The notes under the pieces were generated by a model, which saw nothing but the letters and a program-made list of their open reading frames with translations, was not told where the DNA came from and did no database searches. Both the position numbers and the translations under genes were made by a program. 32,000 bases of DNA from Pyrodictium abyssi (GTDB taxonomy: Archaea; Thermoproteota; Thermoprotei_A; Sulfolobales; Pyrodictiaceae): assembly GCF_036323395.1 (NCBI RefSeq), contig NZ_AP028907.1:1170001-1202000 (forward strand), read 5' to 3'. Below are positions 2,319-20,988 of this stretch, piece after piece (the stretch's first letter is position 1; every line of letters begins with the position of its first letter).

Positions 2319-3116
2319 ATGGGGGAGGAGAAGGGCGGGGAGAGGAGGCTCATACCCGTAGCAGTGGTAGACGCTGTCACCGGCGAGCCCCTAATGCTAG
2401 CCTACGCCGACCAGGAGGCCCTAGACCTGACCAGGGAGACGGGCCTAGCCCACTTCTACTCCCGTAGCCGCGGCAGCCTCTGGCTCAAGGGCGGCTCGAG
2501 CGGCGGGCTCCTAGACGTGGTCCGGGTCCTAGGCGACTGCGACGGCGACGCAGCAGCCTACGTGGCCCGGCCCAGGCGCCACGTATGCCACCTGGGCCGG
2601 AGGAGCTGCTTCCACAACACGCTGCTCGACCGCCGCCGCGAGCTGCTCGAACAGCTGCTGGAGGAGACCCGGCCCCACACCAGGATCGATGGGGCCCGGG
2701 TGCTGCACCCCCTCGCCACCTGGGCGCCGCCCCCGCCGCCGCTCCTCACAGCGCTAGCAGCGGAGCTGCTGGCCGAGAGGATACGCTCCCGGGCAGGCCC
2801 AGGGCTCACAGCCGTGCTAGCGCCCGAGGGCCCTGGAGGCCTGCTCGCGCTCCTAGCAGCCCAGAAGCTGGCCGTACCCCTCCACCTGGCCCGCGGCGGC
2901 CGCGCCCCAGAGAGCATCGGCGAGACAGACCGCGTCGCGGTCTACGCGCCCAGCCCAGCCGAGACCCAGGAGCTCGCAGAAGAGGCGCAGAAACGAGGCG
3001 CCCATGTGGCGGCTGTGGCGGCCCTAGCAGCCCCCGCCGGCGGGGACACCGGGGGCGTAGACGTGCTCATACGGGCCGAGCATGGCCACCCACCACGCCT
3101 AAGGCTAGCACTCTAG
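2319..3116 (+). CDS. hisI: Phosphoribosyl-AMP cyclohydrolase (HisI) fused to a C-terminal degenerate type-I phosphoribosyltransferase-like domain
   Basis: The N-terminal ~105 aa (LIPVAVVD..GEPLMLAYADQEAL..THFYSRSRGSLWLKGGSSG..DCDGDA..C.LGRRSCFH) is HisI. The C-terminal ~150 aa (LTAVLAPEGPGGLLALLAAQKLAVPLHLARGG...RVAVYAPSPAETQELAEEAQKRGAHVAAVAALA) aligns by eye with the PRTase domain of the 21799-22527 protein. It lacks the acidic VDD..TG PRPP loop. Confidence 0.85.
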   Translation: MGEEKGGERRLIPVAVVDAVTGEPLMLAYADQEALDLTRETGLAHFYSRSRGSLWLKGGSSGGLLDVVRVLGDCDGDAAAYVARPRRHVCHLGRRSCFHNTLLDRRRELLEQLLEETRPHTRIDGARVLHPLATWAPPPPPLLTALAAELLAERIRSRAGPGLTAVLAPEGPGGLLALLAAQKLAVPLHLARGGRAPESIGETDRVAVYAPSPAETQELAEEAQKRGAHVAAVAALAAPAGGDTGGVDVLIRAEHGHPPRLRLAL

Positions 3117-5494: not shown

Positions 5495-6199
5495 TTGTCT
5501 AAGCGTTTCGAGCGCATGTATGCCCGGCTGGCCGTGCTCGCGGAGAGGATGGGCGTCGGGGATCTCCTCGGCCCGGTCGTGGAGAGGCTCGCGGCGCTCT
5601 ACAGCCGGGGCGTGCTGGGCGCGAGCCACGTGGTGCTCGAGCTCGTCGCCGCTGGGTGGCTCGCCCGCGAGGGCTACACGGTGTCGGTGGAGGAGCCTGT
5701 GGACGGGCTCATAGCCGACGTGGTGGCCAGGGCGGGGCGCGAGATGCTCCTGGTGGAGGTCGAGACGGGCTACACTCCGCCCCGGTGGAGCCACGCGCCC
5801 CTAGCCTACCACGCGGCCCGGCTAGCGGCCAAGACCGCCCGGTACAGCAGGCTCGGCGACAGATTCGCCCTCGCCTACCCCCTGGGCTACGCCGCGCCCC
5901 TGCACCCCGCGCTGCTCGAGCCCCCGTGGCGCCGGAGCCAGGGGATGCTAGCGGAGCTGAAGAGCCTGGTTGACCGGTTCTACAGGAGGCCACCCATACC
6001 CCTAGAAGCCTTCATGGATGCACGTCTCGACGCTGTGCTCCTCCTCGACCCAGACAACGCCGCGGCCTACTGGGCCCCGCCGAGCCACGCCCCCGGCCTA
6101 CAGGTGCTGGCGCTCCAGGCGGCGCTCTCCACCCTGACCAGCCCCGGCGGCGAGCCAGGCACCGCCAGCCCGGTGGCGGCTACCTCTGCGCCGTCCTAG
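5495..6199 (+). CDS. Hypothetical protein with a possible PD-(D/E)xK nuclease-like core
   Basis: 234-aa ORF with host-like codon usage (TTG at 5495 or ATG at 5516). GLIADVVARAGREMLLVEVETGY resembles a D...(E)xE/K restriction-endonuclease-fold core. The opposite-strand ORF 5213-5794 is R/P-rich shadow. Confidence 0.55.
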   Translation: MSKRFERMYARLAVLAERMGVGDLLGPVVERLAALYSRGVLGASHVVLELVAAGWLAREGYTVSVEEPVDGLIADVVARAGREMLLVEVETGYTPPRWSHAPLAYHAARLAAKTARYSRLGDRFALAYPLGYAAPLHPALLEPPWRRSQGMLAELKSLVDRFYRRPPIPLEAFMDARLDAVLLLDPDNAAAYWAPPSHAPGLQVLALQAALSTLTSPGGEPGTASPVAATSAPS

Positions 6200-7577
6200 C
6201 GGCTGCTGGCTCTATAACCCGGTTGTGGTGGAGCCACTCGAGGTCTACGGCTATATGGTGCTCCTCTAGTATTGGCTCGTCCAGCCCCCGGGCTACCAGG
6301 ACGTAGTAGTTCCTGGGCGAGGCTAGCCCGGTCTCGCCCGCCTTCTCCTCGAGCTTCTCTAGCGCTCGGCGCGCGTCGGCCCTGCTCAGCCGGGCCCACT
6401 TGGCCTCGATGAAGGCCGTTGCTCTGCCGGGGCTCCTCAGCACCAGGTCTATCTCCATGCCCCGGCGCCACCAGGGCCCCGCCTGCCGCGGCTCCAGGGG
6501 CAGAATGCCCCGCTCCACCATGCGGGCGGCCAGCTGCGGCACGATTGTCTCCTCGAACGCCCGCCCCATGTAGCTGTCTAGCTCCCCGAGTATGGCGCGG
6601 CGCGCCTTCTCCACGGCGCCAGACTCTATCAGGCTCCTCAACGGGAGTATGAAGCTGAACCAGAACCTGAAGAAGTTGTCTCTGAACCGTAGCTGGACGG
6701 GCCTCCTCCTGCCCAGGGGCCGCACCCTCCCCACCAGGTCCAGCTCCTCGAGGACCTCGATGTAGCGGCCGATACTCCTCGGGTCCACTCCCGCTGCCTG
6801 GGCGGCCTCGCTCGGCTCCACCCTGCCCTCGGCGACGGCCCGCAGCAGTGCAAGGTATGTGCGGGGCTCGCGCAGCTCCTGCCGTAGCAGCAGCACCGGC
6901 TCGTCGAGGAGCGGGCTCCCGGGACGAGTAGCCTCCTCTACGAGCTTCTCAGCGGAGGCGCCGGGCCCCAGGAGCGCTAGGTAGGCCGGTGTGCCCCCGG
7001 CTACCCCGTAGAGACGGGCAGCCTCCACAGCGGTAAGCCCTGGGTTGAAGCCCCAAGCCTCCCAGAACGCCATTGGGCGTAGCCTTAGCTGCCCAGTGCG
7101 GCGGCCGTAGAGCGGCGCCCTGTAGCCGAGCAGCCGCTTCTCGAAGAAGGAGACAGAGGAGCCACAGAGCACCAGCATCATCCCGGAGCCCTTGAGGGCC
7201 GTATCTATGCTCCTCATGAGCCGGCTCGGCAGCGAGGGATCAGCCTCCACAAGGTACTGGAACTCGTCCAGCACCACCACCAGCTTGCCGCCGCCCCGGT
7301 GGAGCCGGGCGAGGGCCTCCAAGACCTCGACAACGTCCCCGGCGACAGGGAGCCCCAAGGCCTCCTTCACCGCCAGGGAGAACTCCCGGGCAAGGCTCTC
7401 GTAGGGCAGCTCAGCAGCCACGTAGTAGACGCATGGCCTGCCGCGGCAGAACCAGCGCAGCAGAAACGTCTTCCCGACACGCCTCCGCCCATACACCACT
7501 AGCAGCCGGAAGCCCGGCTCACGGTACTCCCTTTCGAGGAGCCCCAGCTCCCTCTCCCGGTCAACCAGCACCTCCAC
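6180..7577 (-). CDS. Archaeal ATPase (Arch_ATPase/AAA) with a DUF234-type C-terminal domain
   Basis: 465 aa. DRERELGLLEREY....LLVVYGRRRVGKTFLLRWF (Walker A), LVVVLDEFQYL (Walker B) and a C-terminal GMEIDLVL...AFIEAKW (DUF234-like nuclease-fold tail). Confidence 0.9.
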   Translation of the reverse strand: MEVLVDRERELGLLEREYREPGFRLLVVYGRRRVGKTFLLRWFCRGRPCVYYVAAELPYESLAREFSLAVKEALGLPVAGDVVEVLEALARLHRGGGKLVVVLDEFQYLVEADPSLPSRLMRSIDTALKGSGMMLVLCGSSVSFFEKRLLGYRAPLYGRRTGQLRLRPMAFWEAWGFNPGLTAVEAARLYGVAGGTPAYLALLGPGASAEKLVEEATRPGSPLLDEPVLLLRQELREPRTYLALLRAVAEGRVEPSEAAQAAGVDPRSIGRYIEVLEELDLVGRVRPLGRRRPVQLRFRDNFFRFWFSFILPLRSLIESGAVEKARRAILGELDSYMGRAFEETIVPQLAARMVERGILPLEPRQAGPWWRRGMEIDLVLRSPGRATAFIEAKWARLSRADARRALEKLEEKAGETGLASPRNYYVLVARGLDEPILEEHHIAVDLEWLHHNRVIEPAAARTAQR

Positions 7578-7702
7578 AGGTTTTCGCCCCTAGAGGCGGC
7601 GCCGCGAGAGGCGCTAAAACAGCTGCGACGCTCCCCGGGCCGCACCTCTTTACATGGGTGTTACCCGCGCTGCCGCGTCCAGGGCCGGGGCGGGCGTATG
7701 GG

Positions 7703-8305
7703 CTAGCTCCGCGGAGGCAGAATAGCGCCCTTAGTGGACACTACGCCGCTGCTGGGCGACAGGGCCTGCCGCAGAGCCATGCCCAGCGCCTTGAAGGCCG
7801 CCTCGGCCACGTGGTGATCGTTCCCACCGCGGAGCGTGACCACGTGCAGGGTCATCCCGGCGGCCGCGGCCAGGCTCTGCAGGAAGTGCGGAATATTCTC
7901 CGTCGCTAGGCCCCCTATAGCCTCGCGGCGCAGGGGCAGCTCCACCCAGGCCCCAGGCCGCCCCGAGTAGTCCACAGCCACCAGCACAAGCGCCTCGTCC
8001 ATAGGCACCACAGCGTAGCCGAAGCGCGCTACCCGGTAGCCCCCAGAGGCCACAGCCCGGGCCACAGCCTCGCCCAGCGCCAGCGCCAGATCCTCAGCCA
8101 CGTGGTGGTCATCCACACGCTTAACCTCCTCCACGGCTGCGCGGAGACCCCAGCCAGCGTAGTACGCCAGAGTCTCCACCATGTGGTCCAGGAACGGTAC
8201 ACCGGTCGATACACTGGTCTCCCGCAGCTCCTCTCGGTCCAGGTCCAGGTCCACAATCACCCTGGTCTCCTTTGTCCGGCGCTCAACCTTTACCCGGCGA
8301 GCCAA
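7703..8305 (-). CDS. hisB: Imidazoleglycerol-phosphate dehydratase
   Basis: VERRTKETRV.VDLDLD, GVPFLDHM and DDHHVAEDLALALG. The ORF is open to 8407, but the first 34 codons are non-homologous. The TTG at 8305 gives a canonical ~200-aa IGPD. Confidence 0.9.
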   Translation of the reverse strand: MARRVKVERRTKETRVIVDLDLDREELRETSVSTGVPFLDHMVETLAYYAGWGLRAAVEEVKRVDDHHVAEDLALALGEAVARAVASGGYRVARFGYAVVPMDEALVLVAVDYSGRPGAWVELPLRREAIGGLATENIPHFLQSLAAAAGMTLHVVTLRGGNDHHVAEAAFKALGMALRQALSPSSGVVSTKGAILPPRS

Positions 8306-9034
8306 TACAGCACACCCGGGGCCACAGAGGCCAGGCCGCCGGGTAATAGGTCCAGGGGACGGCCCAGCCGTACACGCTGTCTCGAAACAGAGGCCAGGCA
8401 GGCGCACAGGTACACCAGCCCACAGGTAAGCACACCCAGCTAACTATAGCATGCCCAAAACAACACAGCACACGTACACCAGCAGCAGAACAAAACAGCG
8501 CAAGCTACAATATGCGACAAGGCATACAGTATACTTTACACCGGCACCGCTAGAGTCGCACTATATTGCAACTTATTATCAAGGGTGCTTATACTGGGCT
8601 TGTCTTACCTGTGCCCGGGCTTAGCTGTAGCCGGGCCCCGCTACATGTTACCCCAGCGTGCACCAGGCAAGCCAGGCGCTGTAACAGTGAGACCTCCGGT
8701 AGTTAGTTAAGGAGAACCAGGTATAGACGAATTGTATACTTTAGACGTGCGCCCGGCATATAAGTGGCAAACTGCACAGTAAAACTACATGGAGAACAGA
8801 TACGGAGAAAGGTTTGAGAGGTGAACCCGTCTGTGAACAAGCTCGTATACATACTCGTACCCCTAGCGGTCGCCGCGCTAGCAGCCGCAGGCTACGTCTA
8901 CCTAGGAGGCGGAGAAGCAGCCCCAGCGACACAGACAGCAGCCACCGCTGCGCCGGCCGCGACGCAGACAGCTGCACCCCGGGGCGCCCGGGCAGGGCCA
9001 CGGCCCCGGCGCCGGCGGAGGCCCGGCAAGGGGC

Positions 9035-9589
9035 GTGGCTACCAGCGTGCAGCAGCTCCCAGCGCAGCCGCTCTCCGAGGACGAGAAGGAGAGCCTACTC
9101 TACATGGTGGAGGAGAAGCTAGCCCGTGACGCATACAACAGGCTAGCCGAGATGTACCCCGACGTACCAGTGTTCGCCAACATAGCGAGGAGCGAGCAGC
9201 AGCACGTAGACTCCGTGATGCAGCTAATAGAGAAGTACGGGCTCGACGTAGAGCTAGGGCCGCCCGGTGTGTTCCACAACCAGGAGCTACAGAGCCTCTA
9301 CAACGAGCTAGTAGACCGCGGCTCCAAGAGCCTAGAAGAAGCACTGAAAGTGGGCGCACTGATAGAGGAGAAGGACATAGTAGACCTAGAGGAATGGCTC
9401 GCTAAGACCGACAACGAGGACATCAAGCTAGTCTACGAGAACCTAATGCACGGCAGCTTCAACCACCTATGCGCCTTCACAAGGACCATGAAAAGCATGC
9501 TAGGCGTAGACTACAAGCCAGTACTCCTCGACGAAGAGACATACAACAGCATCATATCCAGCTGCCAGATGGGCGGCCCCAAGCGCTAA
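9035..9589 (+). CDS. DUF2202 ferritin-like domain protein (possibly 5'-truncated by a frameshift; see findings)
   Basis: LSEDEKESLLYMVEEKLARDAYNRLAEMYPDVPVFANIARSEQQHVDSVMQLIEKYGL is the typical DUF2202 signature. GTG start at 9035. Confidence 0.8.
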   Translation: MATSVQQLPAQPLSEDEKESLLYMVEEKLARDAYNRLAEMYPDVPVFANIARSEQQHVDSVMQLIEKYGLDVELGPPGVFHNQELQSLYNELVDRGSKSLEEALKVGALIEEKDIVDLEEWLAKTDNEDIKLVYENLMHGSFNHLCAFTRTMKSMLGVDYKPVLLDEETYNSIISSCQMGGPKR

Positions 9590-10121
9590 AGGAATACAGA
9601 GAGAACACAGCCCCAGGGCACAACCCCCTACACAGCACCAACACCCCGACACACGCCACACGCATGAACGTATTTTCTCGCCCCAGGCAGGGACAAGCCC
9701 TCTGCCAGACACCACAGCGAGCGTTAGTGTTACCGTATTCAGTTAGCCTCGGAATACAGCATCTATGGGCAATGTCAGGTCAACGGATTGACCCAAGGTC
9801 TTCGCTGTCACTAAGAATTGATGACAGAAAGGTTAAGTACATGCAGTCAGGCAAGTGATAATCAATAGAGCTGACGGGAGAGGCCTATCCTGTTACAGTC
9901 CTGCATCATGTTAAATACTTTGGCGGGCTGAGAATGCTTTAGGATTTAGTAAAGCATGAATTGAAGCCACCGTCAAATGGACAAAGTGAGATTCAGAGAG
10001 CAAGCATGAAGCTCGTTGCGGGAATTACGGAATCAACAAATTTAGTTGTTTATGAAGTAAGGCGTGTTGAAACGCAGTGTAATTGATTGCTACTATGTGG
10101 CTGAGAATGATTAGACAGAGT

Positions 10122-11129
10122 CTAATTCTCTGCTATGTTATTTGGATGCTGTTTAAGCGATTCTACTAGCTCTTTCACCTTTTGCCAGCATAGGTATTCT
10201 CTCGACAGTCTAGCCAGTTCATTATCTATGTTGGCTACTTCTTTCCAGTCCACACAGCGCAAATATTGGTCATTAGCTAAATCTATGGAAAAGACCCTTA
10301 GGACAAGATATGTGATTATTCCACTGACATCGATAAACTTGTTGAGGTATTTCAGCAGGTATTCGGGAACGGGTTCAAGTTCTATCCAATCCCTATAGGT
10401 AGCAATTCTAGCACCCGTCTCCAAGAATCTGGGATGAACACGGTGTGCATGTCCAGAGAGTTCGCTGTAATAGTCATGTATTATTTTAAAAAGATGGCCA
10501 TCTATAATGCCCCAGTTCTTTAACTGTTCTAGAAGCTTGGCGAATGCAGCACTTGGATTAAAATCTGTCAGCTTACTTTCCATTAAGTCAAACAAGTATG
10601 CTGATGGTACAATTCTACTATCTCCTATTTCTTTCTCGATAAGCTCTAGCAGCTCTTTAAAGCTCTTAGCAGCTTTAAAGCCATTTATCTTCTTCAGATT
10701 CACTGCATTCTTACGGTATTGCGGTATTGCCAGTAGGTCAAAGATTATGCCACGGATAACACTCTCTAGCGCATTACGCAGTTCGCTGAAAGCTACACTG
10801 TAATAGCCTGTAAGAGCTGATAGAAGAGAATACCTCATAAGCATTACAGCATCATAATGATAGACTATTAGTGCTGTATGTAGTTGCCAAAACTCGTTGA
10901 AGATCTCCTCGTTGCATACATTTTTTGAAGGCATAAGACCAACAATTAATTCTCCAGAGCTGTTCATTGCACTCATTAAGTTATCAATTATCTCAGCCAC
11001 GCTCAACGTGCTATAAACCGATGGTAAAGCCTCAATATTATCGCTCACTTTGCTAATGTGAGTGCTCATATTTTTTGAATATGTATAGTACAAAATCGGT
11101 AATTCGTGCAAGCTTACGTAAAGTTTCAT
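10122..11129 (-). CDS. Hypothetical helical protein, a distant member of the same family as 12304-13038 and 13255-14037 (HEPN/DUF4145-like, tentative)
   Basis: 335-aa AT-rich ORF. It shares two blocks with the paralogs: LTGYYSVAFSELRNALESVIRGIIFDL and GIIDGHLFKIIHDYYSELSGHAHRVHP. Compare ALRQILEAITIAVYMD and YGLLSSYIHPF in the 13255 protein. Confidence 0.6.
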   Translation of the reverse strand: MKLYVSLHELPILYYTYSKNMSTHISKVSDNIEALPSVYSTLSVAEIIDNLMSAMNSSGELIVGLMPSKNVCNEEIFNEFWQLHTALIVYHYDAVMLMRYSLLSALTGYYSVAFSELRNALESVIRGIIFDLLAIPQYRKNAVNLKKINGFKAAKSFKELLELIEKEIGDSRIVPSAYLFDLMESKLTDFNPSAAFAKLLEQLKNWGIIDGHLFKIIHDYYSELSGHAHRVHPRFLETGARIATYRDWIELEPVPEYLLKYLNKFIDVSGIITYLVLRVFSIDLANDQYLRCVDWKEVANIDNELARLSREYLCWQKVKELVESLKQHPNNIAEN

Positions 11130-11467
11130 CCTCGTTCTTATTATTGTTACTCCGTAGCTCCACAGCTATCCCTAAGCTCTTTATAGACAACCAAGAAGCT
11201 ATATTTAAATTTTATAGTATAATTTCCTCGATTACTCTGTAAAAGGGCTCATACAAGGACAAGGGATGACCGTATAATGGTTCCGTATAATGATAGGAAA
11301 CCACGAGACACTTAGTCTGACGCTTTAGAGTCCATAATCTGCAGAATCTAGCTCTATGCACGATACGTCGGTAACCGGGATGAGCTTGAATGAAATAGCC
11401 CTGTAAGAATCCAAGAAGCTAGATATCAGCTTACAAGCACTTCATGTTATAATGATTGGCGTGATTC

Positions 11468-11983
11468 TTATAATGAGCTTTTTATCCTTAACGCTGGCCC
11501 TAATTGATAGCACATTATAATTCTTCTCGAGTTGTCTAGCATGATTTTTAGGGTGATAATGTTGAGGGCTTTCCTGGAGGCAAGTAATGTCCCAGCCAGC
11601 AGGCTGGCTAGGAGGAGTTTAGCAGCCGTTTGGATGTAGCTGGCCTTTTCTACTAGCTGACTATAGGCTTCTGGTCGAAGACGCCGTGCTACATTGTCTA
11701 CGAGATGTTGTGCTACATGCTCGTCGAGGACCAGAGCGCTAGAATAGAGTGCCCTCATAGCATAGCTTTTGCCGGTATTCGGTGGGCCTAGGGGCAGGGT
11801 CACGTCTCCTAGCGATAGCTCTGCGCTTCGGACGGGGCCGAAGTTCTCTAGGATAAGCTTCACTGGAGGTTCCCCTGCATATAGCCGCTGCACTCCTAGC
11901 CCTACCGGGCAGGGGCGACGCCCTATCAGCCTACCGTCACGCTCACAGCATGCCATTCTCCTGGGCGGTACATGAGACAGCAT
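11468..11983 (-). pseudogene. N-terminal relic of a P-loop (SMC/ABC-like AAA) ATPase
   Basis: VKLILENFGPVRSAELSLGDVTLPLGPPNTGKSYAMRAL is the N-terminal strand plus Walker A of an AAA_15/21/23-type ATPase. The ORF stops after ~170 aa with no Walker B or signature motif downstream. Its 5' part is distinctly GC-richer than the surrounding island. Confidence 0.5.
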
Positions 11984-12303
11984 AAGCAGAAACCTTCTAA
12001 GGGTACATGAGGAGCGACTATCCTGTAGCTTGGGTTATTGCCCTTCTCAGGGCCGTCTCAGAGGACTGGTACCTAACTAAACATGGCTCTAATCTATGCC
12101 TAGCTCCTTGCTTGGCCCCGACAACAGTCAGCCGGCCAAGTGCGAACCGTAGCCTGATTCCCGGATGATGGGCGGGCTTAATTTGCGGGACTTTTTTATA
12201 GCAGATCCTGGCAACTGGTAATGAAACGGATGAGATGCATGCATGAGATAATGTTGGTAAGGCTGAGCACTTAAGGGATGTATCCGATGAGCTTGATTCA
12301 CTT

Positions 12304-13038
12304 GTGGAAATGGAGTATGGGCTTGTATGGGCTGCATGCAAGTATGGTCTAGAGAATTTCAAGTACGCGGCGAGGAATGCTCGTGGGTTTATTCAGTCTT
12401 GTAGCGAGCTATCGGATACAGTTGAAGAGGTCTTCATGAAGTATTTTGTTGATATCGAGGATAACCTAGTAGGGGAGACTGTAACGCCTGCGGCACTACT
12501 CTACGTTATCGTGCCTCTAGGGTTTTTGTCCTATGTTTGCACGGTGGCTCTTCATGGCGCGTTGCCTTATGCAGCGGCTGGCCTAAGGCTTATTGTTGAA
12601 GCATTAACACTATCAGTATATGTTGATACTAAGTTTCCGGATAAAAGCTATGAGGAAAAACTAGACCTAATGTCAGAGAAGTATAATACATTTAGTGCCG
12701 TTGCTGAGGAGCTAAGAAGGTATGCAAAGATAGATAATAGACTTATAGATGACGTTATTACTGTATGGCGTGAAACATCAGCCTATCTCCACTTTGTTAA
12801 TCGTGCCCGAAGGGCTGGTGCGAAAGGCATACTCCGCCTAGTCGAGAAATATGTAGAGGAGCACGGTGCTCCTCCAAGCGGCTTCACTATACCGTTGCCA
12901 ACAGAGTTCCTCTTCGAGCATGATGCCAAGGAGCTAAGAAGGCTGGAAGAACTAATTAGATTAGTTACCAAGATTGTGCCTGGACTCCTTGAAGCCTGGG
13001 CAAGAACGCTCAGAGAGCACAGAGCTGGAGCTAACTAG
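12304..13038 (+). CDS. Hypothetical helical protein, paralog of 13255-14037 (HEPN/DUF4145-like, tentative)
   Basis: 244 aa. It is clearly alignable to the next gene: FMKYFVDIED / FLKYFVYIEE; LSYVCTVALHGALPYAAAGLRLIVEALTLSVYVDT / PGYVCTSILQAAIPLAYFALRQILEAITIAVYMDT; WRETSAYLHFV / YGLLSSYIHPF; EEHGAPPSGFT / DEHGIPPTFAT. Confidence 0.7.
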   Translation: MEMEYGLVWAACKYGLENFKYAARNARGFIQSCSELSDTVEEVFMKYFVDIEDNLVGETVTPAALLYVIVPLGFLSYVCTVALHGALPYAAAGLRLIVEALTLSVYVDTKFPDKSYEEKLDLMSEKYNTFSAVAEELRRYAKIDNRLIDDVITVWRETSAYLHFVNRARRAGAKGILRLVEKYVEEHGAPPSGFTIPLPTEFLFEHDAKELRRLEELIRLVTKIVPGLLEAWARTLREHRAGAN

Positions 13039-13284
13039 TTCTCCTATTCTTGGTTATGGCCGGAGACCGATACTGGATAACATCGGTGGTTGCAGTTACA
13101 AGTGAGTTTGTTGAAGAGTCACTGAGAAGAACTTGATTGATGCAAGCGTGTTATTCACTGTGTAGCTAGTCTCTAATAGCTGATAGGCTGATAGTATGTA
13201 TTGTGAAAAATATAAATAGATAAGAATGCTAGCTAGATACTGTCAAGCCGTGAAGTGTATACATGGCTGGAGGGATCTGATGGG

Positions 13285-14037
13285 ATGAAGTTAAAGGAGG
13301 AGCGTGGGGAGTTTGAGCAATTGAAGCGCTTTTACGTTGAGAATAGCTGCGAGGTAGCGCATAGTAACTTTAACTACATCCTTAAGATTGATAAAGGCTT
13401 GATCATAGCCTGTGACGAGTTCTATGAAATATGCATAGAGTTGTTTCTCAAGTACTTTGTATACATAGAGGAAAGTATAAAGGGAATCGACCCGGAGACA
13501 TACTTTAAGAGATATCTCCTGCCCTCCGTGCTTTTCTACATAGTAGCGCCGTTTCCTGGCTATGTGTGTACAAGCATACTCCAGGCCGCAATACCCCTTG
13601 CATACTTTGCGCTTAGGCAGATACTTGAGGCAATTACAATAGCCGTGTATATGGACACATGTCCGAGGTACAAGAACCTAGACTATGAAAGAAAGGCAAG
13701 GGAGGCCAGAAGGCTCACATTCTCTGATACACTTGGCTACTTTGAGCGGATAGACAGAGGACTCGCAGAGAACCTCAGAAGACTCTACGGTCTCCTCTCG
13801 AGCTACATACATCCCTTTGCCAGGAAGGGCCTGGGAGGTCTTGTGAGCCTTGCCGACAGATCGCTAGACGAGCATGGTATTCCTCCAACCTTCGCAACTG
13901 CATTTGCATTATCAAAATACACGGGAGGTAAGGCCGACGAGACTGAGCTTGCCAGGTTAAAGAAAACGATATATGAGACAGCTAGGCTAGTCATAGAACT
14001 AATAAACGTATGGCTCATGTACATTGCCAGAGGGTAA
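13285..14037 (+). CDS. Hypothetical helical protein, paralog of 12304-13038 (HEPN/DUF4145-like, tentative)
   Basis: The ORF is open from the GTG at 13255. The ATG at 13285 is preceded by GGAGGG. An AAAATATAAATAG TATA-like box lies at ~13209-13221. Paralogy evidence is given for the previous feature. Confidence 0.7.
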   Translation: MKLKEERGEFEQLKRFYVENSCEVAHSNFNYILKIDKGLIIACDEFYEICIELFLKYFVYIEESIKGIDPETYFKRYLLPSVLFYIVAPFPGYVCTSILQAAIPLAYFALRQILEAITIAVYMDTCPRYKNLDYERKAREARRLTFSDTLGYFERIDRGLAENLRRLYGLLSSYIHPFARKGLGGLVSLADRSLDEHGIPPTFATAFALSKYTGGKADETELARLKKTIYETARLVIELINVWLMYIARG

Positions 14038-14062: not shown

Positions 14063-15034
14063 TTATATCAGAAAGGTGTGCAGTTCCACGGATAGGTTTC
14101 TTGCTGCTAGGTCTACAGTATCTATTCGTCCCTCGGCTATCAGTTCTAGTAGCTTTTCAGCTGTTAGCTTAGCTTTATCTTCTCTTGTTATCCTCCTAGC
14201 AGCTTCTAGGATTGGTTTTAGGTTATCCTTTGAGAGCGTATGTATTGCTTCGCGTGCCTCTTCTTCAAGATTTTCTCGCAGAGCTCTTGCTAGTAGCTCT
14301 GTCGGTGTTTTGCCGTCTGTGCGTACTATTATTACTGCTATGGGTTTGTCCCGATGATGTCTTGCCAGTAATTTTGCGTAGCGTGCTGCCTGTAGTAATG
14401 GATTATGGCTCGCCGTTGCTATAGTTCCTTCCTCGGGAGTCTTTATTTCAAAAACTACTGCCATGCCAGTACAGTCTACATAAAGGTCTAGCCTTGCTCC
14501 AGTCGCAAAGTAGTGCTCCAAGTTTACAGTTTCACAGTCGGGAGGAAGTAAACTGCAAAGAACATGTTTTAACGCCTCCTTGAATGTCTCTCCGTCAAGC
14601 CTTAGAGTGAAGAGTGTGTCCAAGATTATTATGAGCTTTTCTGCGGTATTGTCTGAGGGTATTAAACTGAGTAGCTGCCCTACATGTGCCGCTACGTCTG
14701 TAGGACTTATTCCCGTCGAATACTGCATAGTATGATGTTGACTTCTGCATCTTACTGTAAGTGCATCCCAAGGTATGCTATCGTAGTGTTGCAGCCTCAT
14801 CACTTTGAGTCCTCTAACACTATGTCTAACAATGTAGGCTTTCCATTTCTCCTCAAGCTTTTCAGCAGCTTCAGGACTTATTGTCTCTACTTTCCTTACT
14901 ATGTTTCTATAGGTCTCTAGGGGCACGCAGACCAAGTCACCTACGTTCTCGCCTAACGATGATAGGATTATCTCAGACAGTGCGAGGTAGAGGGCTGTTT
15001 TGTCAACCGTTTTCCGCCTCGTTTTCCTCCTCAA
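14063..15034 (-). CDS. PD-(D/E)xK nuclease-fold protein with a basic N-terminus and a helical C-terminal tail
   Basis: 323 aa. The TTG start lies 4 nt after the stop of the upstream gene and is preceded by GGAGGT. The core is E173-H..ARLD183LYVD186...VVFE196IK198, followed by LLQAARYAKLL and PIAVIIVRTDG. This order is typical of PDDEXK/Rpn-like nucleases. The N-terminus is MRRKTRRKT. Confidence 0.7.
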   Translation of the reverse strand: MRRKTRRKTVDKTALYLALSEIILSSLGENVGDLVCVPLETYRNIVRKVETISPEAAEKLEEKWKAYIVRHSVRGLKVMRLQHYDSIPWDALTVRCRSQHHTMQYSTGISPTDVAAHVGQLLSLIPSDNTAEKLIIILDTLFTLRLDGETFKEALKHVLCSLLPPDCETVNLEHYFATGARLDLYVDCTGMAVVFEIKTPEEGTIATASHNPLLQAARYAKLLARHHRDKPIAVIIVRTDGKTPTELLARALRENLEEEAREAIHTLSKDNLKPILEAARRITREDKAKLTAEKLLELIAEGRIDTVDLAARNLSVELHTFLI

Positions 15035-15038
15035 GCGC

Positions 15039-16367
15039 TCATACCTCCGAGGCTATTTCGTTGGCGATTTTTGTCTTGGTAAGCTGTATAGAGTCCCTTA
15101 GTGGTTCGAGGAGAAGGCTTCTGATTTCCTCTCTAATCCGGCTTTCAGACATACTTGAGTAGGTGAACATGGAGAGATTAAGCATGTTTATGCCAAGATA
15201 GTTGTAAGTTGAGTTATTTATAGCTAAGCTTCTAGTCTCGGCCGGCACAGCGCCTACTATTAGATCAAGATCGAGTCCATTGCGTGGCAATCTGAGGGAG
15301 AAGAATGTTATTTGGGGCGTTCCCTTGGCCTCAAGATCGTTAAAGAATTCGTCAGGATCCTTGTAGTTTAGTAGTTGCGCTGCTACTTCTTCTGCTGACA
15401 CCTTTCTATCAGGACCTATTATGCCCCCATACGCTATTATACGATACTTTATCCCACTCACGCGAAGTACAACAGCTTTGCCGCCACGCCTTTTTACTTG
15501 ACCGTATAGGGCTTTCGCCAGCCTATTGGGGCCAATAGCGTTTATAACATCATAACCTGTTAACGTATCTACATCCCTGTTACTAGCATAACGTATTATC
15601 GCTTGAAACGCTGCTGTGAACGTTCTAACTTGTTTGGTTATAATACTTGGCCCATACAAGCGGACCTCTATTCCGCTTATATCGCTATTTGGACTCACTA
15701 AAGCTATTCCAGCAGGCTGGTAGCTTGTGAAACGTATGCTCGGGGAGCTAAGATTTAGAGTCCCTCCTATCGACACTCCAAGGTTTACCACACGTAGAGA
15801 TCCTGAAGCAAGCAGAAGTGGTATCCAATCTCGTCCTCCCACTCTTATATAGGGGCTATCTCGTCTAGTTAAGGGTAGAATCCATAAATTAGTGCCCCTA
15901 TAGCTATACATGAAGCCTCTCTCATAAACTACTAATGCAGCCCTTCTATCTACTTGTCTATTTGTAACGAGCTCTCCTCTATTAACCTCAAATTCCAGCC
16001 TTGTGCTATCAACGGGTTTAAGCGTTGCCTCGTTGCTCGGGAGTATACCTGCAACCATATCATCTATAAGCTCGCTAGGTCTAGCGTTTTGAGGAAATAA
16101 GAATACTATACGCCCTCTTGAATAAAGGTTAAGTTCCTGATTATTCTTAATATCGTCAACTATACTTTGTATGAGGTCCTCTTGGTGTATCTTTCCAAGA
16201 CACTCATACCTACCAAGAGGCCTCTTTTTAATTGATGTATAGCAGTCAGCTAGCTGTTGCAAAGTCTTGGTGGGAGTGGCTTGTTGCAGAAACACATAGT
16301 AGGGTATAGCGTCTGCAGAGAACTTCCTTATTGTGCTGGACATGCCTACCCCTATAGTGGCTAACAC
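15039..16367 (-). CDS. Unknown beta-rich protein; candidate divergent, catalytically inactive short Argonaute (MID-PIWI-like). This is a hypothesis from motif order only.
   Basis: 442-aa ORF from the GTG at 16367; the ATG at 16343 gives 434 aa. An ATATATAAT TATA-like box lies at 16378-16386. Ordered motifs (aa numbering from 16367):
- YYVFLQQ (23-29).
- RIVFLFPQ (86-93).
- ILPSN (108-112).
- RGTNLWIL (157-164; compare the PIWI motif K-L-G-G-x-x-W-x-L).
- NLGVSIGGT (195-203).
- AVVLRVSG (298-305; compare the hRDG strand, which is HVSG in Archaeoglobus Piwi).
There is no P-loop and no DEDX set. Confidence 0.45.
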   Translation of the reverse strand: MLATIGVGMSSTIRKFSADAIPYYVFLQQATPTKTLQQLADCYTSIKKRPLGRYECLGKIHQEDLIQSIVDDIKNNQELNLYSRGRIVFLFPQNARPSELIDDMVAGILPSNEATLKPVDSTRLEFEVNRGELVTNRQVDRRAALVVYERGFMYSYRGTNLWILPLTRRDSPYIRVGGRDWIPLLLASGSLRVVNLGVSIGGTLNLSSPSIRFTSYQPAGIALVSPNSDISGIEVRLYGPSIITKQVRTFTAAFQAIIRYASNRDVDTLTGYDVINAIGPNRLAKALYGQVKRRGGKAVVLRVSGIKYRIIAYGGIIGPDRKVSAEEVAAQLLNYKDPDEFFNDLEAKGTPQITFFSLRLPRNGLDLDLIVGAVPAETRSLAINNSTYNYLGINMLNLSMFTYSSMSESRIREEIRSLLLEPLRDSIQLTKTKIANEIASEV

Positions 16368-16448
16368 TATAGGTGAGATATATAATGCTGCAGTACTATT
16401 GAGCCAGCTAGGCCAACTAAGGCGTCTCTAAGTTCCATAGCACCATAA

Positions 16449-16679
16449 TCATCGCATGCATCTACTACCATCCCCTAGAAGCCTCATGGTGGTTTGATCG
16501 AGGCTTACCAGCTCGAGTCTGATTCTCTTCCTGTCTAGCTCGTATTCTCTTGTTGCCTCGGCTTCGTCGGGGAGGGGTTCATCTACGCCTAGAAGCCTTT
16601 CCTCTAGCAGGGCCTCGATCCGCTTCAGCGTAGCCTGGAGACCGCGTATCTCCTCTAGTAGCTGTTTCTCTACAGACAA
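16449..16679 (-). CDS. Small coiled-coil protein (antitoxin-like archaeal family), uncertain
   Basis: 76 aa with a TTG start. LLEEIRGLQATLKRIEALLEERLLGVDEPLPDEAEATREYELDRKR..ELVSL resembles small archaeal helical proteins that end in a ...vsLeel motif. It is GC-richer than its neighbours. Confidence 0.4.
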   Translation of the reverse strand: MSVEKQLLEEIRGLQATLKRIEALLEERLLGVDEPLPDEAEATREYELDRKRIRLELVSLDQTTMRLLGDGSRCMR

Positions 16680-16789: not shown

Positions 16790-17545
16790 TTAGAGCAGCC
16801 TAACTATAAACGAGTCCAGGTCTGTGTCCTCCAAGCCGTCTTGTATGCCTGCTATCAGCTCCCGCAGCATAGCCCTCCATGCCGGGTCAGCATTGTCTAT
16901 AAGATGCTTCACCTTCTCCACCACAACTGTCACTCCAGCCTCCTTCACATTTCTTGGCAACTCTCCTTCAACTACCTCATGGCAGTGCTTTCTCACGTCT
17001 TTATCACAGTATTCTACACTAGTAATGGGACTTCTCGGCACTACTAGTGCTATCCAGCATTCCGCACTACATTTCCACGACGCTATGCATATCTTAGGTC
17101 TGTCAGGCCGCCTAATACATAGTGACGCAAAGTACTTACCTCCGTGCTGTATTGGTTGAACTTCTTTATCCTTCTTGTTTCTCACAATGATCTCTTGTAT
17201 GATTTTCCAAAGTCTTTGATAATACTCGTTTGCCCTATCAGTAGGCCTATCTGAATCGCTATCCACTATTACCGCCAGACACACTTCTGCATTAGGGACA
17301 GACCGAATGAATGCTTCAGTGGCTTTAATTATTTCTTTCGTGGCATCCCTTACATTCTTTATCCCTCCGGCTGGATATATAGCAATGCATCCTGCATCGA
17401 GGAAGCATTCCCACATGTATTCTTTTATTTCTTCTATGTTACTGGAATAGTAGAGGTCATAGTTATCCGAGACCGCAGCACCTAAGAGATAGACGTCATA
17501 CAATCCCTCTGTTACTATGATCGCGTATTTACAGCCACTTAGCAA
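16790..17545 (-). CDS. TOPRIM-like (DUF4435/OLD-type) putative nuclease, partner of the upstream ABC ATPase
   Basis: 251 aa. The TTG start is preceded by AGGAGGTG, 36 nt after the ATPase stop. The pattern AIIVTEGLYDVYLL (TOPRIM Glu) ... IYPAGGIKNV ... LAVIVDSDSD (DxDxD) matches the DUF4435/OLD TOPRIM layout. Confidence 0.65.
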   Translation of the reverse strand: MLSGCKYAIIVTEGLYDVYLLGAAVSDNYDLYYSSNIEEIKEYMWECFLDAGCIAIYPAGGIKNVRDATKEIIKATEAFIRSVPNAEVCLAVIVDSDSDRPTDRANEYYQRLWKIIQEIIVRNKKDKEVQPIQHGGKYFASLCIRRPDRPKICIASWKCSAECWIALVVPRSPITSVEYCDKDVRKHCHEVVEGELPRNVKEAGVTVVVEKVKHLIDNADPAWRAMLRELIAGIQDGLEDTDLDSFIVRLL

Positions 17546-17581
17546 CGCTATGCACCTCCTGCTATGCTATTGACTAGGGAG

Positions 17582-19183
17582 CTATATGCCGCGCAACTCT
17601 ATACCTATTTCCTTTGCCTCTAAGATCTCTCTGCCCTTAAATACTGAGTATACCTCTCCGTTCGACATCAAGACAGTCTTAACCTTGTCGAGAACACCAT
17701 GCCTCATAGCTCTTTTGGCGATAAAGCGTATCAGCTCCATGCTATGAGTGCTGAGCAACACAAGAGCACTAGGATTCTCTTTAGTAGCTCTCGCTATGCT
17801 ATCTGCAAGTACCATTAAGTAGCCTGGGTGGAGTCCAGTCTCGGGCTCTTCAAGGATAAGTACTGTCTGGGGCTGCCTCCTAGCTAGAACTAGACCTGCT
17901 AGCAAGGCTAATAGCAGCAGGGTACCATCGCCGAGTAACGCTGCAGGTATTCTCATACCGTCCTTTCTCAGAAGGACTTCATTCTCTTTAATGATAGGAT
18001 CCTCTAGATTGAGACTTCTGATGCTTCTAATAACGTTACCATAGTCTCTAAGGAGTCCAAGATCATGAACTTTGTCTACTATTTTCTCTAAGGTATTTGC
18101 GCCAAAGATTTCATGGCGGATAACAGTACTTCTTCGAAATACTGTGTAAACATTCCATTCCGTCTTTTCATTGGCCTTTCCATCGTTGAGGTTTACTCTG
18201 TACTGTGCTGTCCATAAGTTATCTATAGTCCTTCTCAGTTTCTTCCATATACACCGCCTAATCATTTTTCCTAGTTCTTTACCTAGCTGGAGCTTAGCGT
18301 AGACTGAATATAAGTCTTTTAATTCAGCTCTCTCTAAGATTATCCCTGTCATATTTATTATGTTACGTACGAAGACTGCTTCAAGATTACTAAGTTCTTC
18401 GTAGTATTGTTTCTCCTTGCTTACACCCATTCTAAAGCGTGGCAAGTATAAGTAGGATGATCCATTCAGCTTTATAACTATGCTATCATCTATGATTGGC
18501 CTAATTATCCTGTTGACATGCTCCCTTAGGGTTAATGCTGCAGATTTTAGGGCAGGCTCACTTTTGTATATACTTCTCGCTAAACTTTCTGGAAGCAATA
18601 TAGGTTGTACTATTTTTTCTATCGATAACCTTTCTTCACAAGTTGATTCTGCAAGATGAGCTATAATGTACCCTATAGTGAACATTATCGTTGTTAACGC
18701 TTCACCCTCTCTAGTGTAGCTAGCAAAGGCTTTTCTGAGACATCTGTATGCTTCGCCTTCACTTGTCAGCTCATCGTAGAGGCTTTCTCTGATTTTTTGA
18801 AGCATCATACATAGGAATTGATTATTTATTGTGCTATTTGGCTTAGCTATCCTTACTATTCGGGCGCCTTGGTCATCCATCTTGAGATTTAGATTTATGG
18901 TTGCCTCTTCTCTGCATGTCAAGTTCAATAGCCTACTTGGGTGCCCAGCGAGCTTGTCGTCTATTATCATGCGGGCTATGTCGTTGCCGAGCCAGTCTTG
19001 TAGGCTAGGTGCTGAGAATGCGAGGGCTAATGCCTCGAGGACTGAGGATTTGCCGGCGTTATTCCTGCCGGTGAGTATAGTTATCGGAGCCAGCTCTAGC
19101 TTAACCTCTTTTACTCCTCTGAAGCACTTGATCTTGGCTACGCCAATAGGGCTATCCTGCTTGGTCTCTTTTGCTTGCTCCAT
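17582..19183 (-). CDS. ABC-type AAA ATPase of the AAA_15/AAA_21 (OLD N-terminal / AriA / RloA-like) family
   Basis: 533 aa. Walker A TGRNNAGKSSVLEAL, a long helical insert, a signature-like LLGDGT, Walker B VLILEEPETGLHP and H-loop LLSTHS. Confidence 0.9.
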   Translation of the reverse strand: MEQAKETKQDSPIGVAKIKCFRGVKEVKLELAPITILTGRNNAGKSSVLEALALAFSAPSLQDWLGNDIARMIIDDKLAGHPSRLLNLTCREEATINLNLKMDDQGARIVRIAKPNSTINNQFLCMMLQKIRESLYDELTSEGEAYRCLRKAFASYTREGEALTTIMFTIGYIIAHLAESTCEERLSIEKIVQPILLPESLARSIYKSEPALKSAALTLREHVNRIIRPIIDDSIVIKLNGSSYLYLPRFRMGVSKEKQYYEELSNLEAVFVRNIINMTGIILERAELKDLYSVYAKLQLGKELGKMIRRCIWKKLRRTIDNLWTAQYRVNLNDGKANEKTEWNVYTVFRRSTVIRHEIFGANTLEKIVDKVHDLGLLRDYGNVIRSIRSLNLEDPIIKENEVLLRKDGMRIPAALLGDGTLLLLALLAGLVLARRQPQTVLILEEPETGLHPGYLMVLADSIARATKENPSALVLLSTHSMELIRFIAKRAMRHGVLDKVKTVLMSNGEVYSVFKGREILEAKEIGIELRGI

Positions 19184-19369: not shown

Positions 19370-20116
19370 TTATAGTATGCCTAGTGGGTTGAGCCGCCAG
19401 GTGTAGAGGGCCATGCCTGCTACTGCCTCGTCGTAGCCCATGGCGGCGAGGAGCTCTAGGTCCCGGGGGCCCGCTATGCCCCCGCTGTATGCTAGCCGGG
19501 GTGCGCCGGCCTCCCGGGCCTGCCGGGCTAGCCTGGCTGCGCGGTGGAGGTCTACGCCGCGCTGCTCGCCCTCGTGGAAGACCTGGGTGTAGAATAGCCC
19601 CCAGATGCCGCGGGTGCTTGCTGCCTGCTTCACGGCCTCGGCTAGGGTCATGGGCTCCCTGCTGCGCCACGCGCTTGTGGCGGGTAGCGCGTCCCAGTGC
19701 TCCTCGACGGCTGGGACCAGTACGCCGGGGCCTAGCGCGTCCACGGCCTCCTGGAGGAACTCGGGGCGGCGGAGCCACGCGCTCGCGACCACCAGGCGGT
19801 CGGCGCCCGCGCTGTGGGCCTCTTCTAGGGCGTCTATGCTCCGGAGCCCGCCGCCTAGCTGTATCGTGGCCCCTGTCTCCCTCTTGGCCCACTCCACGAG
19901 CTCTAGGACGCACCTGCTAGGCCTGCCCCTGGCCGCGCCGTCCAGGTCGACTATGTGGAGGACCGTGGCGCCGAGGCTGTGCCAGAGCAGGACGAGGCGC
20001 CGTGGGTCTCCGAGGCGTAGCCCGGTGCCGGGCACGCCCCGGACCAGCTTGACGGCCTCGCAGCCGGCCACGTCTATGCTGGGTACGAGCCGGGGCCTGG
20101 AGAGGAGGCTTGGCAT
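19370..20116 (-). CDS. hisA: ProFAR isomerase (HisA)
   Basis: The ATG at 20116 lies 2 nt after the hisG stop; the ORF is open to 20233, but that extension is R/P-rich. Motifs VPSIDVAGCEAVKLVRG, LHIVDLDGA, IQLGGGLRS and AYSGGIAG. Confidence 0.9.
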   Translation of the reverse strand: MPSLLSRPRLVPSIDVAGCEAVKLVRGVPGTGLRLGDPRRLVLLWHSLGATVLHIVDLDGAARGRPSRCVLELVEWAKRETGATIQLGGGLRSIDALEEAHSAGADRLVVASAWLRRPEFLQEAVDALGPGVLVPAVEEHWDALPATSAWRSREPMTLAEAVKQAASTRGIWGLFYTQVFHEGEQRGVDLHRAARLARQAREAGAPRLAYSGGIAGPRDLELLAAMGYDEAVAGMALYTWRLNPLGIL

Positions 20117-20118
20117 GG

Positions 20119-20988
20119 CTAGGGTATCACCCTGTCCACGCTGAGCACTAGTATGTCGCGGGCGCCGCGCCGCCGGGCCTCGACGAGGACGTGGGCTAGC
20201 CTGTCCTCCGGCACCACTGTTATCACCTCCCACATGGGCCGGGGGCCCTCCACCCTGGCTATCGTGGGCCCCGACATCGAGGGGAGCGCCTCTACTACGC
20301 GCTGTAGGGCCTCCTCCGGCACGTTCATGAGTACTAGCTTGTAGCCCCGGGCCCGTAGCACGCTCCTCACAGCCTCGACGATGACCTCTACGAGGGGGTC
20401 CTCTGGGTCTACGTGGCTGCCCCGGATCAGCTTGGCCTCTGTCCGCATGACCTCGGCTACTACGCGTAGCCCGTGCAGCCTAAGTGTGGTCCCGGTCGAG
20501 GATACGTCGAGTATGGCGTCTGCCACGCCGAGCCTGGGCATGGCCTCGGCGGAGCCTGTTATCCTGATTATCCTCGCCCTGACCCCTAGCTTCTCGAAGA
20601 ACCTCCGGGCTATGTTGACGAACTTGGTCGCCACCCGGACCCCGTCGGGGAGGTCTCTTGGGCTCTCCACCGGCGCCTCCTCGGGCACTGCTACCACGAG
20701 GCGGGCGCGGCCGATGCCCAGGCCCTCGACTATCTCCAGGCCCTCGCCGCTGTGCTCCTCTATGTAGTCGAGCCCCGTGATGCCGAGCTCTGCGCCGCCC
20801 GCAGAGACTATCGCCGGTATGTCCTCGGGCCGGACGTAGACCAGGGACACGTTCTCCCAGTTCGTGGGCACTATCAGCGCGCGGGTCGCGTCGGGGCTGT
20901 AGAGGGGCTCTATGCCCGCAGCCTCTAGTAGGCGGAGCACAGGGTCCCTTAGCCGGCCCTTGCTGGGAACCGCTATCCTCACACCCAC
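20119..20988 (-). CDS. hisG: ATP phosphoribosyltransferase (long form)
   Basis: 289 aa with a GTG start. RIAVPSKGRL..P.L.LLE.AGI, the central PRPP-binding region (DVSSTGTTLR) and a C-terminal regulatory-domain-sized tail. Confidence 0.95.
   Translation of the reverse strand: MGVRIAVPSKGRLRDPVLRLLEAAGIEPLYSPDATRALIVPTNWENVSLVYVRPEDIPAIVSAGGAELGITGLDYIEEHSGEGLEIVEGLGIGRARLVVAVPEEAPVESPRDLPDGVRVATKFVNIARRFFEKLGVRARIIRITGSAEAMPRLGVADAILDVSSTGTTLRLHGLRVVAEVMRTEAKLIRGSHVDPEDPLVEVIVEAVRSVLRARGYKLVLMNVPEEALQRVVEALPSMSGPTIARVEGPRPMWEVITVVPEDRLAHVLVEARRRGARDILVLSVDRVIP

Follow-up and report, generated by a model that had tools for sequence, protein, structure and literature searches.

The DNA stretch analyzed here (the window) is a 32,000-nucleotide (nt) segment of the Pyrodictium abyssi chromosome (Thermoproteota, Desulfurococcales; contig NZ_AP028907.1, positions 1,170,001 to 1,202,000). 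Two adjacent genes on its minus strand, A and B, are the subject of this report: B is a predicted nuclease of the PD-(D/E)xK superfamily, A belongs to an extremely rare protein family, and the short junction through which translation of B would be coupled to that of A recurs in two metagenomic loci. A first-pass annotation of the window had read A as an inactive protein resembling the short prokaryotic Argonautes (pAgos), with their MID-PIWI layout, translationally coupled to B. The features of the pair are as follows (aa, amino acids; ORF, open reading frame).

16378..16385, minus strand: TATA-box-like element TTATATAT, ~38 nt upstream of the ATG of A, putative promoter of A-B
15039..16343, minus strand: gene A, 434 aa from an ATG, RefSeq WP_338248394.1; the ORF extends to a GTG at 16367 (442 aa)
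15654..16022, minus strand: central region of A, ~9-11 consecutive beta strands in two low-confidence structure predictions
15813..15905, minus strand: best-conserved signature of the A family, SY(R/G)G..W..PL ... G(G)R.WIP(F/L)L
15032..15048, minus strand: coupling junction, with GGAGGT at 15043-15048, the TGA of A at 15039-15041, a 4-nt spacer and the TTG of B at 15032-15034
14063..15034, minus strand: gene B, 323 aa from a TTG start, PABY_12970, with homologs on two metagenomic contigs (L001 and L003)
14378..14518, minus strand: predicted active-site region of B (E173, D183, E196-x-K198, Q215-xxx-Y219)

Both ORFs lie on the minus strand where the first-pass annotation had placed them (15039-16367, 442 aa; 14063-15034, 323 aa), and the motifs that it had picked out are found at the positions it gave (RGTNLWIL at aa 157-164 of A; E173, D183 and E196-x-K198 in B). 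The ATG at 16343 (M9 of the longer ORF) is the likely start of A, because the alignment with its full-length homolog (P0001) begins at M9 and the RefSeq protein has 434 aa. The GenBank entry for A (BES81731.1, PABY_12980) covers its C-terminal 206 aa only, and UniProt automatically names this fragment 'AMMECR1 domain-containing protein'. We rejected that name: P0004, P0008 and P0005 gave no Pfam match at E <= 10, and no AMMECR1 structure was present among the Protein Data Bank (PDB) sequence matches at E <= 10. Protein B is 100% identical to PABY_12970, a hypothetical protein of P. abyssi. Both A and B are real genes and not chance ORFs; their homologs sit on contigs of quite different base composition.

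The GGAGGT and the 4-nt gap that had been noted between the two genes can be read directly in the sequence (...TCGGAGGTATGA-gcgc-TTG), the GGAGGT lying within the last codons of A. The same arrangement was found elsewhere. On metagenomic contig L001 a 313-aa ORF, 43% identical to B (E = 9e-78), starts 3 nt after the A homolog. On L003, a 2.4-kb contig, a B homolog (P0003, 58% identity, E = 3e-111) is preceded, at the upstream end of the contig, by the 90 C-terminal residues of an A homolog (73% identity to window A). In all three loci that show the junction (the window, L001 and L003), A ends ...GAGG(T/C)(A/G)-stop and is followed, after a gap of 3-6 nt, by a TTG start of B, as expected of the translationally coupled two-gene unit that had been proposed. 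By all-against-all BLASTP, the P. abyssi island shares no genes but A and B with the other loci. A survey of gene neighborhoods, as suggested by the first-pass annotation, showed A and B to be syntenic in L001 and L003; the contigs carrying two more distant A relatives (P0005 and P0007, on L004 and L005) are 1.5 kb or shorter, too short for a view of A-B synteny.

Upstream of A, the TATA-box-like element is accompanied by GGGGTAGG, a putative ribosome-binding site just 5' of the ATG, and TTTATATA and GGGGGTG occupy the same positions upstream of the A gene of L001. Thus, in both loci a TTATATA-type box lies ~35-40 nt before the start of A and a GGGGT motif just before it. Because these TATA-like and Shine-Dalgarno-like elements recur in the two loci, we infer that A-B has its own archaeal promoter. 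A scan for sigma-70 promoters and intrinsic terminators stayed at background level, with a method that is not applicable to archaea.

Protein B consists of an unassigned N-terminal region of ~165 aa, a predicted PD-(D/E)xK core and a helical, likewise unassigned C-terminal tail. The RecB/Cas4-like branch of the PD-(D/E)xK superfamily is marked by a D...(D/E)xK motif with a QxxxY after it, and among the three B sequences available (43-58% identity) E173, D183, E196, K198, Q215 and Y219 do not vary. Several independent matches, all of them sub-threshold, converge on the same ~90 residues within ~166-289: PDDEXK_4 (E = 0.024); PDDEXK_9 (E = 0.082 with full-length B, 0.027 with P0003 and 0.009 with the isolated core); NERD, with P0003 (E = 0.036); and the PADLOC model PDC-S26 (E = 0.0019). 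A 'CRISPR/Cas system associated' PHROG (E = 0.038) was also matched by B, as was SfsA, a PD-(D/E)xK protein of known structure (PDB 4da2, E = 0.058), whose counterpart motifs align with D183 and the E-x-K strand. PDC-S26 (an uncharacterized candidate defence gene) and SfsA-like and Cas4/RecB-like nucleases are thus the best (sub-threshold) matches of B over the D...ExK core, and none of them has an A-like partner. The invariant motif residues and the converging matches make it quite likely that B is a PD-(D/E)xK nuclease with its core in the C-terminal half, in agreement with the first reading of this gene.

The A family is very small. When 1.84 billion cluster representatives were searched exhaustively with phmmer, five proteins were returned at E <= 0.001: P0001, the only full-length homolog (53-55% identity, E = 6e-149), found on metagenomic contigs L001 and L002; P0004, which is the truncated GenBank copy of A itself; P0005, a 317-aa fragment with 30% identity; P0006, a 187-aa fragment with 31% identity; and P0007, a related 153-aa N-terminal fragment. 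A word-indexed search gave one match to A and a profile search of 5.8 billion proteins four, and in all about four distinct family members are known among 15 billion proteins. Pattern scans with back-translated A and B alignments were empty in GTDB genomes, JGI metagenome contigs and IMG/VR, and tblastn against PLSDB gave no meaningful relatives of A or B. The best-conserved part of the family is the signature region at 15813..15905, which includes RGTNLWIL (likened in the first-pass annotation to the PIWI hallmark KLGGxxWxL) and is kept down to relatives at 30% identity. P0005 and P0007 end in an identical peptide, SPVSYTHLTLPTN, at the contig end, which looks like a sequencing-adapter or assembly artefact and not real protein sequence.

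Neither full-length A nor its single domains gave a reproducible match in Pfam, NCBIfam, PHROGs, PADLOC or the PDB sequences, which bears out the statement that A has neither a P-loop nor another common signature. A has no internal repeats, and neither gene has a paralog in the window.

The first-pass annotation had gone further and matched A, motif by motif, to the MID-PIWI layout. For comparison, we collected from PLSDB 14 real long and 9 real short pAgos with their partners (23 in all), a TtAgo fragment (100% identical to the pTT27 sequence) serving as search seed only. The short pAgos (L019 and L021-L028, from PLSDB plasmids) are 469-539 aa long, carry the RefSeq label 'hypothetical protein' and were fetched with TIR-, DUF4365- or SMEK-APAZ partners or with archaeal partners. 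The Pfam Piwi model (PF02171) missed all five real short pAgos scanned (L019, L024, L025, L027 and L028; best E = 0.16), and the Pfam negative for A is therefore without weight.

The tests with adequate controls were negative for A. No PADLOC pAgo model matched A, P0001 or P0005 at E <= 1, whereas each of five real short pAgos matched 13-18 models (E = 1e-144 to 1e-206). In hhalign, the A-family profile, with an effective number of sequences (Neff) of 1.7, reached a probability of 0.1-0.4% against the short, long MID-PIWI, full-length and combined pAgo profiles. The controls gave 99.6% for the nine short against the long pAgos, 99.0% for three archaeal short pAgos at the same Neff of 1.7, and 98.1-98.5% for single sequences (Neff 1). 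A forced global alignment of A to the short-pAgo profile scored 6.2, no better than block-shuffled sequence (3.3 +/- 2.5, with 3 of 12 shuffles reaching 6.2); the control scored 129 vs. 15.7 +/- 8.3 when shuffled. A hidden Markov model (HMM) of the A family, run against 177,635 PDB sequences, found no Argonaute at E <= 10.

The individual motifs fared no better. No alignment of A to the MID domain of pAgos was obtained by hhalign, and the A family itself varies at the positions that had been assigned to the MID pocket: window A has RIVFLFPQNA and ILPSN, P0001 has RILFIFLYNL and ILPQD, and P0005 has RTKIGFVFPKYG and NIPKR. The best local hhalign alignment placed RDWIPLL...NLGVSIGG on the first catalytic strand of TtAgo (...LAVGFDAGG) at noise level (P = 0.13, 0.45%). 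A 25-residue match to PAZ_4 (E = 0.16) is absent from P0001 and was for that reason dismissed as noise. No adequately controlled membership test placed A among the Argonautes, and at the level of sequence comparison that identity is not supported.

Structure prediction by AlphaFold2 (AF2) was unreliable for A, with a mean predicted local distance difference test score (pLDDT) of 30.4 when two sequences were used, and of 40.7, with a predicted template modelling score of 0.37, when five were used. In both runs DSSP assigned the run of beta strands to residues ~115-238, followed by helices, with a pLDDT of 50-61 over this region in the better model. This all-beta stretch differs from the alternating alpha/beta order of MID-PIWI, a hint from low-confidence models. 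When the better model was compared with the PDB by Foldseek, no match was found at E <= 0.001 (best template modelling score 0.13/0.23), and no Argonaute was present among the top 50 matches. The top matches were a START domain and a clathrin propeller, and the comparison was uninformative.

The pair was then set beside known two-gene systems. The APAZ domain is linked to 93% of short pAgos (Ryazansky et al., PMC6299218). The B family aligned to seven real APAZ partners with a probability of 0.0-0.2% in hhalign, a test of limited power, as archaeal vs. bacterial APAZ reached 86% and a single TIR-APAZ vs. Mrr/SMEK-APAZ reached 0.3%. The archaeal vs. bacterial control aligned >200 APAZ columns, which exceeds the length of the N-terminal region of B (~165 aa). 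Closest in outline are the SPARDA-type systems (DUF4365/Mrr-APAZ plus short pAgo, with SMEK- and HNH-APAZ variants), in which a ~430-540-aa non-catalytic protein and a PD-(D/E)xK-type nuclease likewise form a two-gene operon in mobile or defence contexts (PMC10810196, PMC12774872, PMC6299218); the real short-pAgo/nuclease examples that we fetched are L022, L023, L024 and L026. In contrast to these, A has no detectable MID-PIWI similarity and B no detectable APAZ, the domain order of B is reversed (its nuclease core being C-terminal), and the nuclease is encoded downstream of A, whereas the partner gene was upstream of the pAgo in all real systems fetched.

Other Argonaute-associated systems resemble A-B in part. 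The Archaeoglobus fulgidus protein AfPiwi (AfAgo) resembles A in size, by the layout given in the first-pass annotation. AfAgo is archaeal and has a partner encoded by a neighboring gene, with which it forms a heterodimer (PMC10954474); unlike A, for which the PDB sequences yielded no Argonaute at E <= 10, it is a bona fide MID-PIWI protein, and its partner is an N-L1-L2 protein, not a nuclease. In the bacterial pPIWI-RE triads, which have spread horizontally, a divergent PIWI-family protein is linked to a protein of the restriction endonuclease (REase) fold with a helical N-terminal domain, and the genes are close or overlapping, in the strict order REase, DinG helicase (which the system requires), pPIWI-RE (PMC3702460). 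A-B differs in having no helicase and in having the nuclease last, not first; the pPIWI_RE Pfam models did not match A at E <= 10, their sensitivity to divergent members being uncalibrated. The long-B pAgo operons of Rhizobium and Runella plasmids combine an inactive Argonaute with an abutting or overlapping PD-(D/E)xK nuclease gene. There, however, the nuclease gene is upstream of a 790-830-aa pAgo, and B has no detectable relation to these nucleases (hhalign 0.5%).

The A-B pair is carried by an island of ~45% G+C (~9.5-19.2 kb) inside DNA of ~65-70% G+C, with histidine biosynthesis genes on both flanks. The features around the pair are as follows; strands are given where they were recorded.

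92-1363: hisD-like gene (histidinol dehydrogenase), further left of the island
2319-3116: PRA-CH gene, further left of the island
7703-8407: IGPD gene, histidine biosynthesis, one island flank
11468-11983, minus strand: 171-aa ORF matching AAA_15 / PD-T4-4_A / PDC-M47A (E down to 6e-8)
16449-16679, minus strand: 76-aa ORF without family match, between A and the ATPase pair, ~105-110 nt from each
16790-19183, minus strand: 533-aa AAA_15/AAA_21 ATPase and 251-aa protein, directly upstream of A-B
19370-20233: His_biosynth gene, histidine biosynthesis, other island flank
20119-20988: HisG gene, histidine biosynthesis, same flank as His_biosynth

The 533-aa ATPase matches AriA, AbiLi, OLD, GajA and PDC-M38A models (best E = 7e-23). 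The 251-aa protein starts 36 nt after it, has weak PDC-M38B matches and, on inspection by eye, Toprim-like motifs (IIVTEG..., VIVDSDSD). Judged from these similarities, the two are probably a split two-gene defence system of the OLD/AbiL/PARIS type; a PDB sequence search on the pair gained nothing further. The 171-aa ORF aligns with the N-terminal P-loop part of the matched ATPase models only and resembles a truncated relic of a second ATPase-based defence gene. A low-G+C insertion beside an OLD/AbiL/AriA-like AAA_15/AAA_21 ATPase supports the 'defence-type island' of the first-pass annotation, here a variable one, a label that is reasonable for P. abyssi, though resting on one neighboring system. 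Within the island, two adjacent genes on the plus strand (12304-13038 and 13255-14037) are paralogs of each other (32% identity, E = 2e-31) and convergent with gene B; family scans gave them no assignment.

On L001, A-B lies in a lower-G+C stretch (7000-14000) between sugar-nucleotide biosynthesis (dTDP-sugar/epimerase) genes. Downstream of it, a 237-aa ORF (12969-13682) contains a D...ECK-like string, YDDVRLFVECKGG, which could be another nuclease motif; the ORF had no Pfam or PADLOC match.

These data suggest that A-B may be a horizontally mobile, autonomously expressed module of two coupled genes, a RecB/Cas4-like nuclease effector and a protein that controls or targets it, and we give this reading a probability of roughly 40%. 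It would work as follows: (i) transcription of the bicistronic module would begin at a TATA-type promoter of its own, 5' of A; (ii) translation of B would be coupled to that of A by the GAGG in the last codons of A, the 3-6-nt gap and the TTG, so that the two proteins are made together, and they would probably act as a complex; (iii) B would be the effector, a metal-dependent PD-(D/E)xK DNA nuclease of RecB/Cas4 type with a QxxxY motif; (iv) A, which has no conserved catalytic constellation, would be a non-enzymatic subunit that senses or binds the target and licenses or directs B; and (v) the likely role would be defence against mobile genetic elements, or competition between them. The patchy and rare A family (five proteins among 1.84 billion representatives) is typical of accessory or defence genes.

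Several observations weigh against this reading. None of the curated PD-(D/E)xK models matched B at its gathering cut-off, and the L001 homolog of B had no match at E <= 0.1. The role of A as sensor or regulator is a default assignment. No PADLOC model of a known defence system matched the A-B pair. The neighbors of A-B on L001 are all orphans or uncharacterized, and guilt by association stands on very few loci, since IMG/VR, PLSDB, GTDB genomes and JGI contigs yielded no relatives.

Three other explanations were weighed against a nuclease controlled by A. If the PIWI reading of A were right after all, A would be an extremely divergent, catalytically dead MID-PIWI protein that, bound to a small nucleic-acid guide, activates nuclease B on target recognition, with inverted gene order and no APAZ. 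The size of A (434 aa) is close to that of the short pAgos, a nuclease partner is found in SPARDA and in the long-B pAgo/nuclease systems (PMC10810196), and the noise-level alignment to the first catalytic strand of TtAgo and the PAZ_4 match point the same way. Against it stand the PADLOC, hhalign, global-alignment and PDB HMM results, all negative and the first three beside strong controls, together with the unconserved MID-pocket positions, the missing PAZ_4 match in P0001, a B protein with no detectable APAZ similarity and an N-terminal region shorter than the APAZ columns aligned between real partners, and, from the two low-confidence AF2 runs, an all-beta stretch where MID/PIWI alpha/beta would be expected, with no Argonaute among the Foldseek top 50. 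About four sequences (Neff 1.7) limit the reach of profile methods, and because the profile is this shallow and no reliable structure of A is available, we leave a cryptic PIWI-like fold, and with it this explanation, a very small residual probability.

The pair might instead serve the life cycle of a mobile element (replication initiation, recombination or integration), for example that of an integrated plasmid or virus remnant, and have no part in host defence; B would then act as processing nuclease, and A would bind DNA or serve as initiator. Archaeal viruses and plasmids often carry PD-(D/E)xK nucleases, and A-B lies in low-G+C insertions that interrupt conserved gene clusters of two genomes, among mostly orphan genes. 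No integrase, replication-protein or capsid signature was found near A-B, however, and no integrase, tRNA gene or target, or flanking att-like direct repeats at the island borders; no relatives were present in IMG/VR or PLSDB, A and B alone travel together with no larger element backbone, and the adjoining OLD/AbiL-like ATPase is typical of defence islands. We consider a life-cycle function unlikely. An addiction module of toxin-antitoxin type, in which a toxic nuclease B is held in check by binding of A and the island is thereby stabilized, would fit the tight, coupled two-gene layout with the putative inhibitor first, as well as the mobility and patchy distribution of the pair. A (434 aa) is, however, far larger and more complex than typical antitoxins, and no toxin-antitoxin family matches A or B. 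Such a module would also overlap in mechanism with an effector nuclease controlled by A, as abortive-infection systems often look like toxin-antitoxin pairs; as a separate explanation it appears quite improbable.

What is supported is the fallback position of the first-pass annotation, an uncharacterized two-gene nuclease module in a variable island, in this case one more accessory gene pair of a hyperthermophilic archaeon, with a partner family of about four known members. The genomes of hyperthermophiles often contain orphan nuclease pairs, and A-B so far shows no sign of a new mechanism; the extreme rarity of A leaves some room for surprise. Should A prove to have a novel fold, or to sense foreign nucleic acid in a novel manner, the pair would add to the poorly charted defence repertoire of Thermoproteota. 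In the highly unlikely case that A is of PIWI type, A-B would represent a new Argonaute-type system of archaea that lacks APAZ, the RecB/Cas4-like B being set free to act once A has recognized its target. A heat-stable nuclease controlled by a partner could be of practical use. The record needs correction at two points, the 206-aa truncation of A in GenBank and the unsupported 'AMMECR1' name in UniProt. As regards method, a Pfam negative alone cannot dismiss a short-pAgo claim; PADLOC pAgo models or custom profile-profile tests are needed.

Outside the island, the minus strand at 6180-7577, immediately left of the IGPD gene, encodes a protein with archaeal ATPase_2 and DUF234 (plus DUF4143/HTH) matches. 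A ParA/MinD-like (CbiA) ORF (30874-31950, minus strand) near the right end of the window lies within a second low-G+C patch (38%), which may be part of another inserted element.

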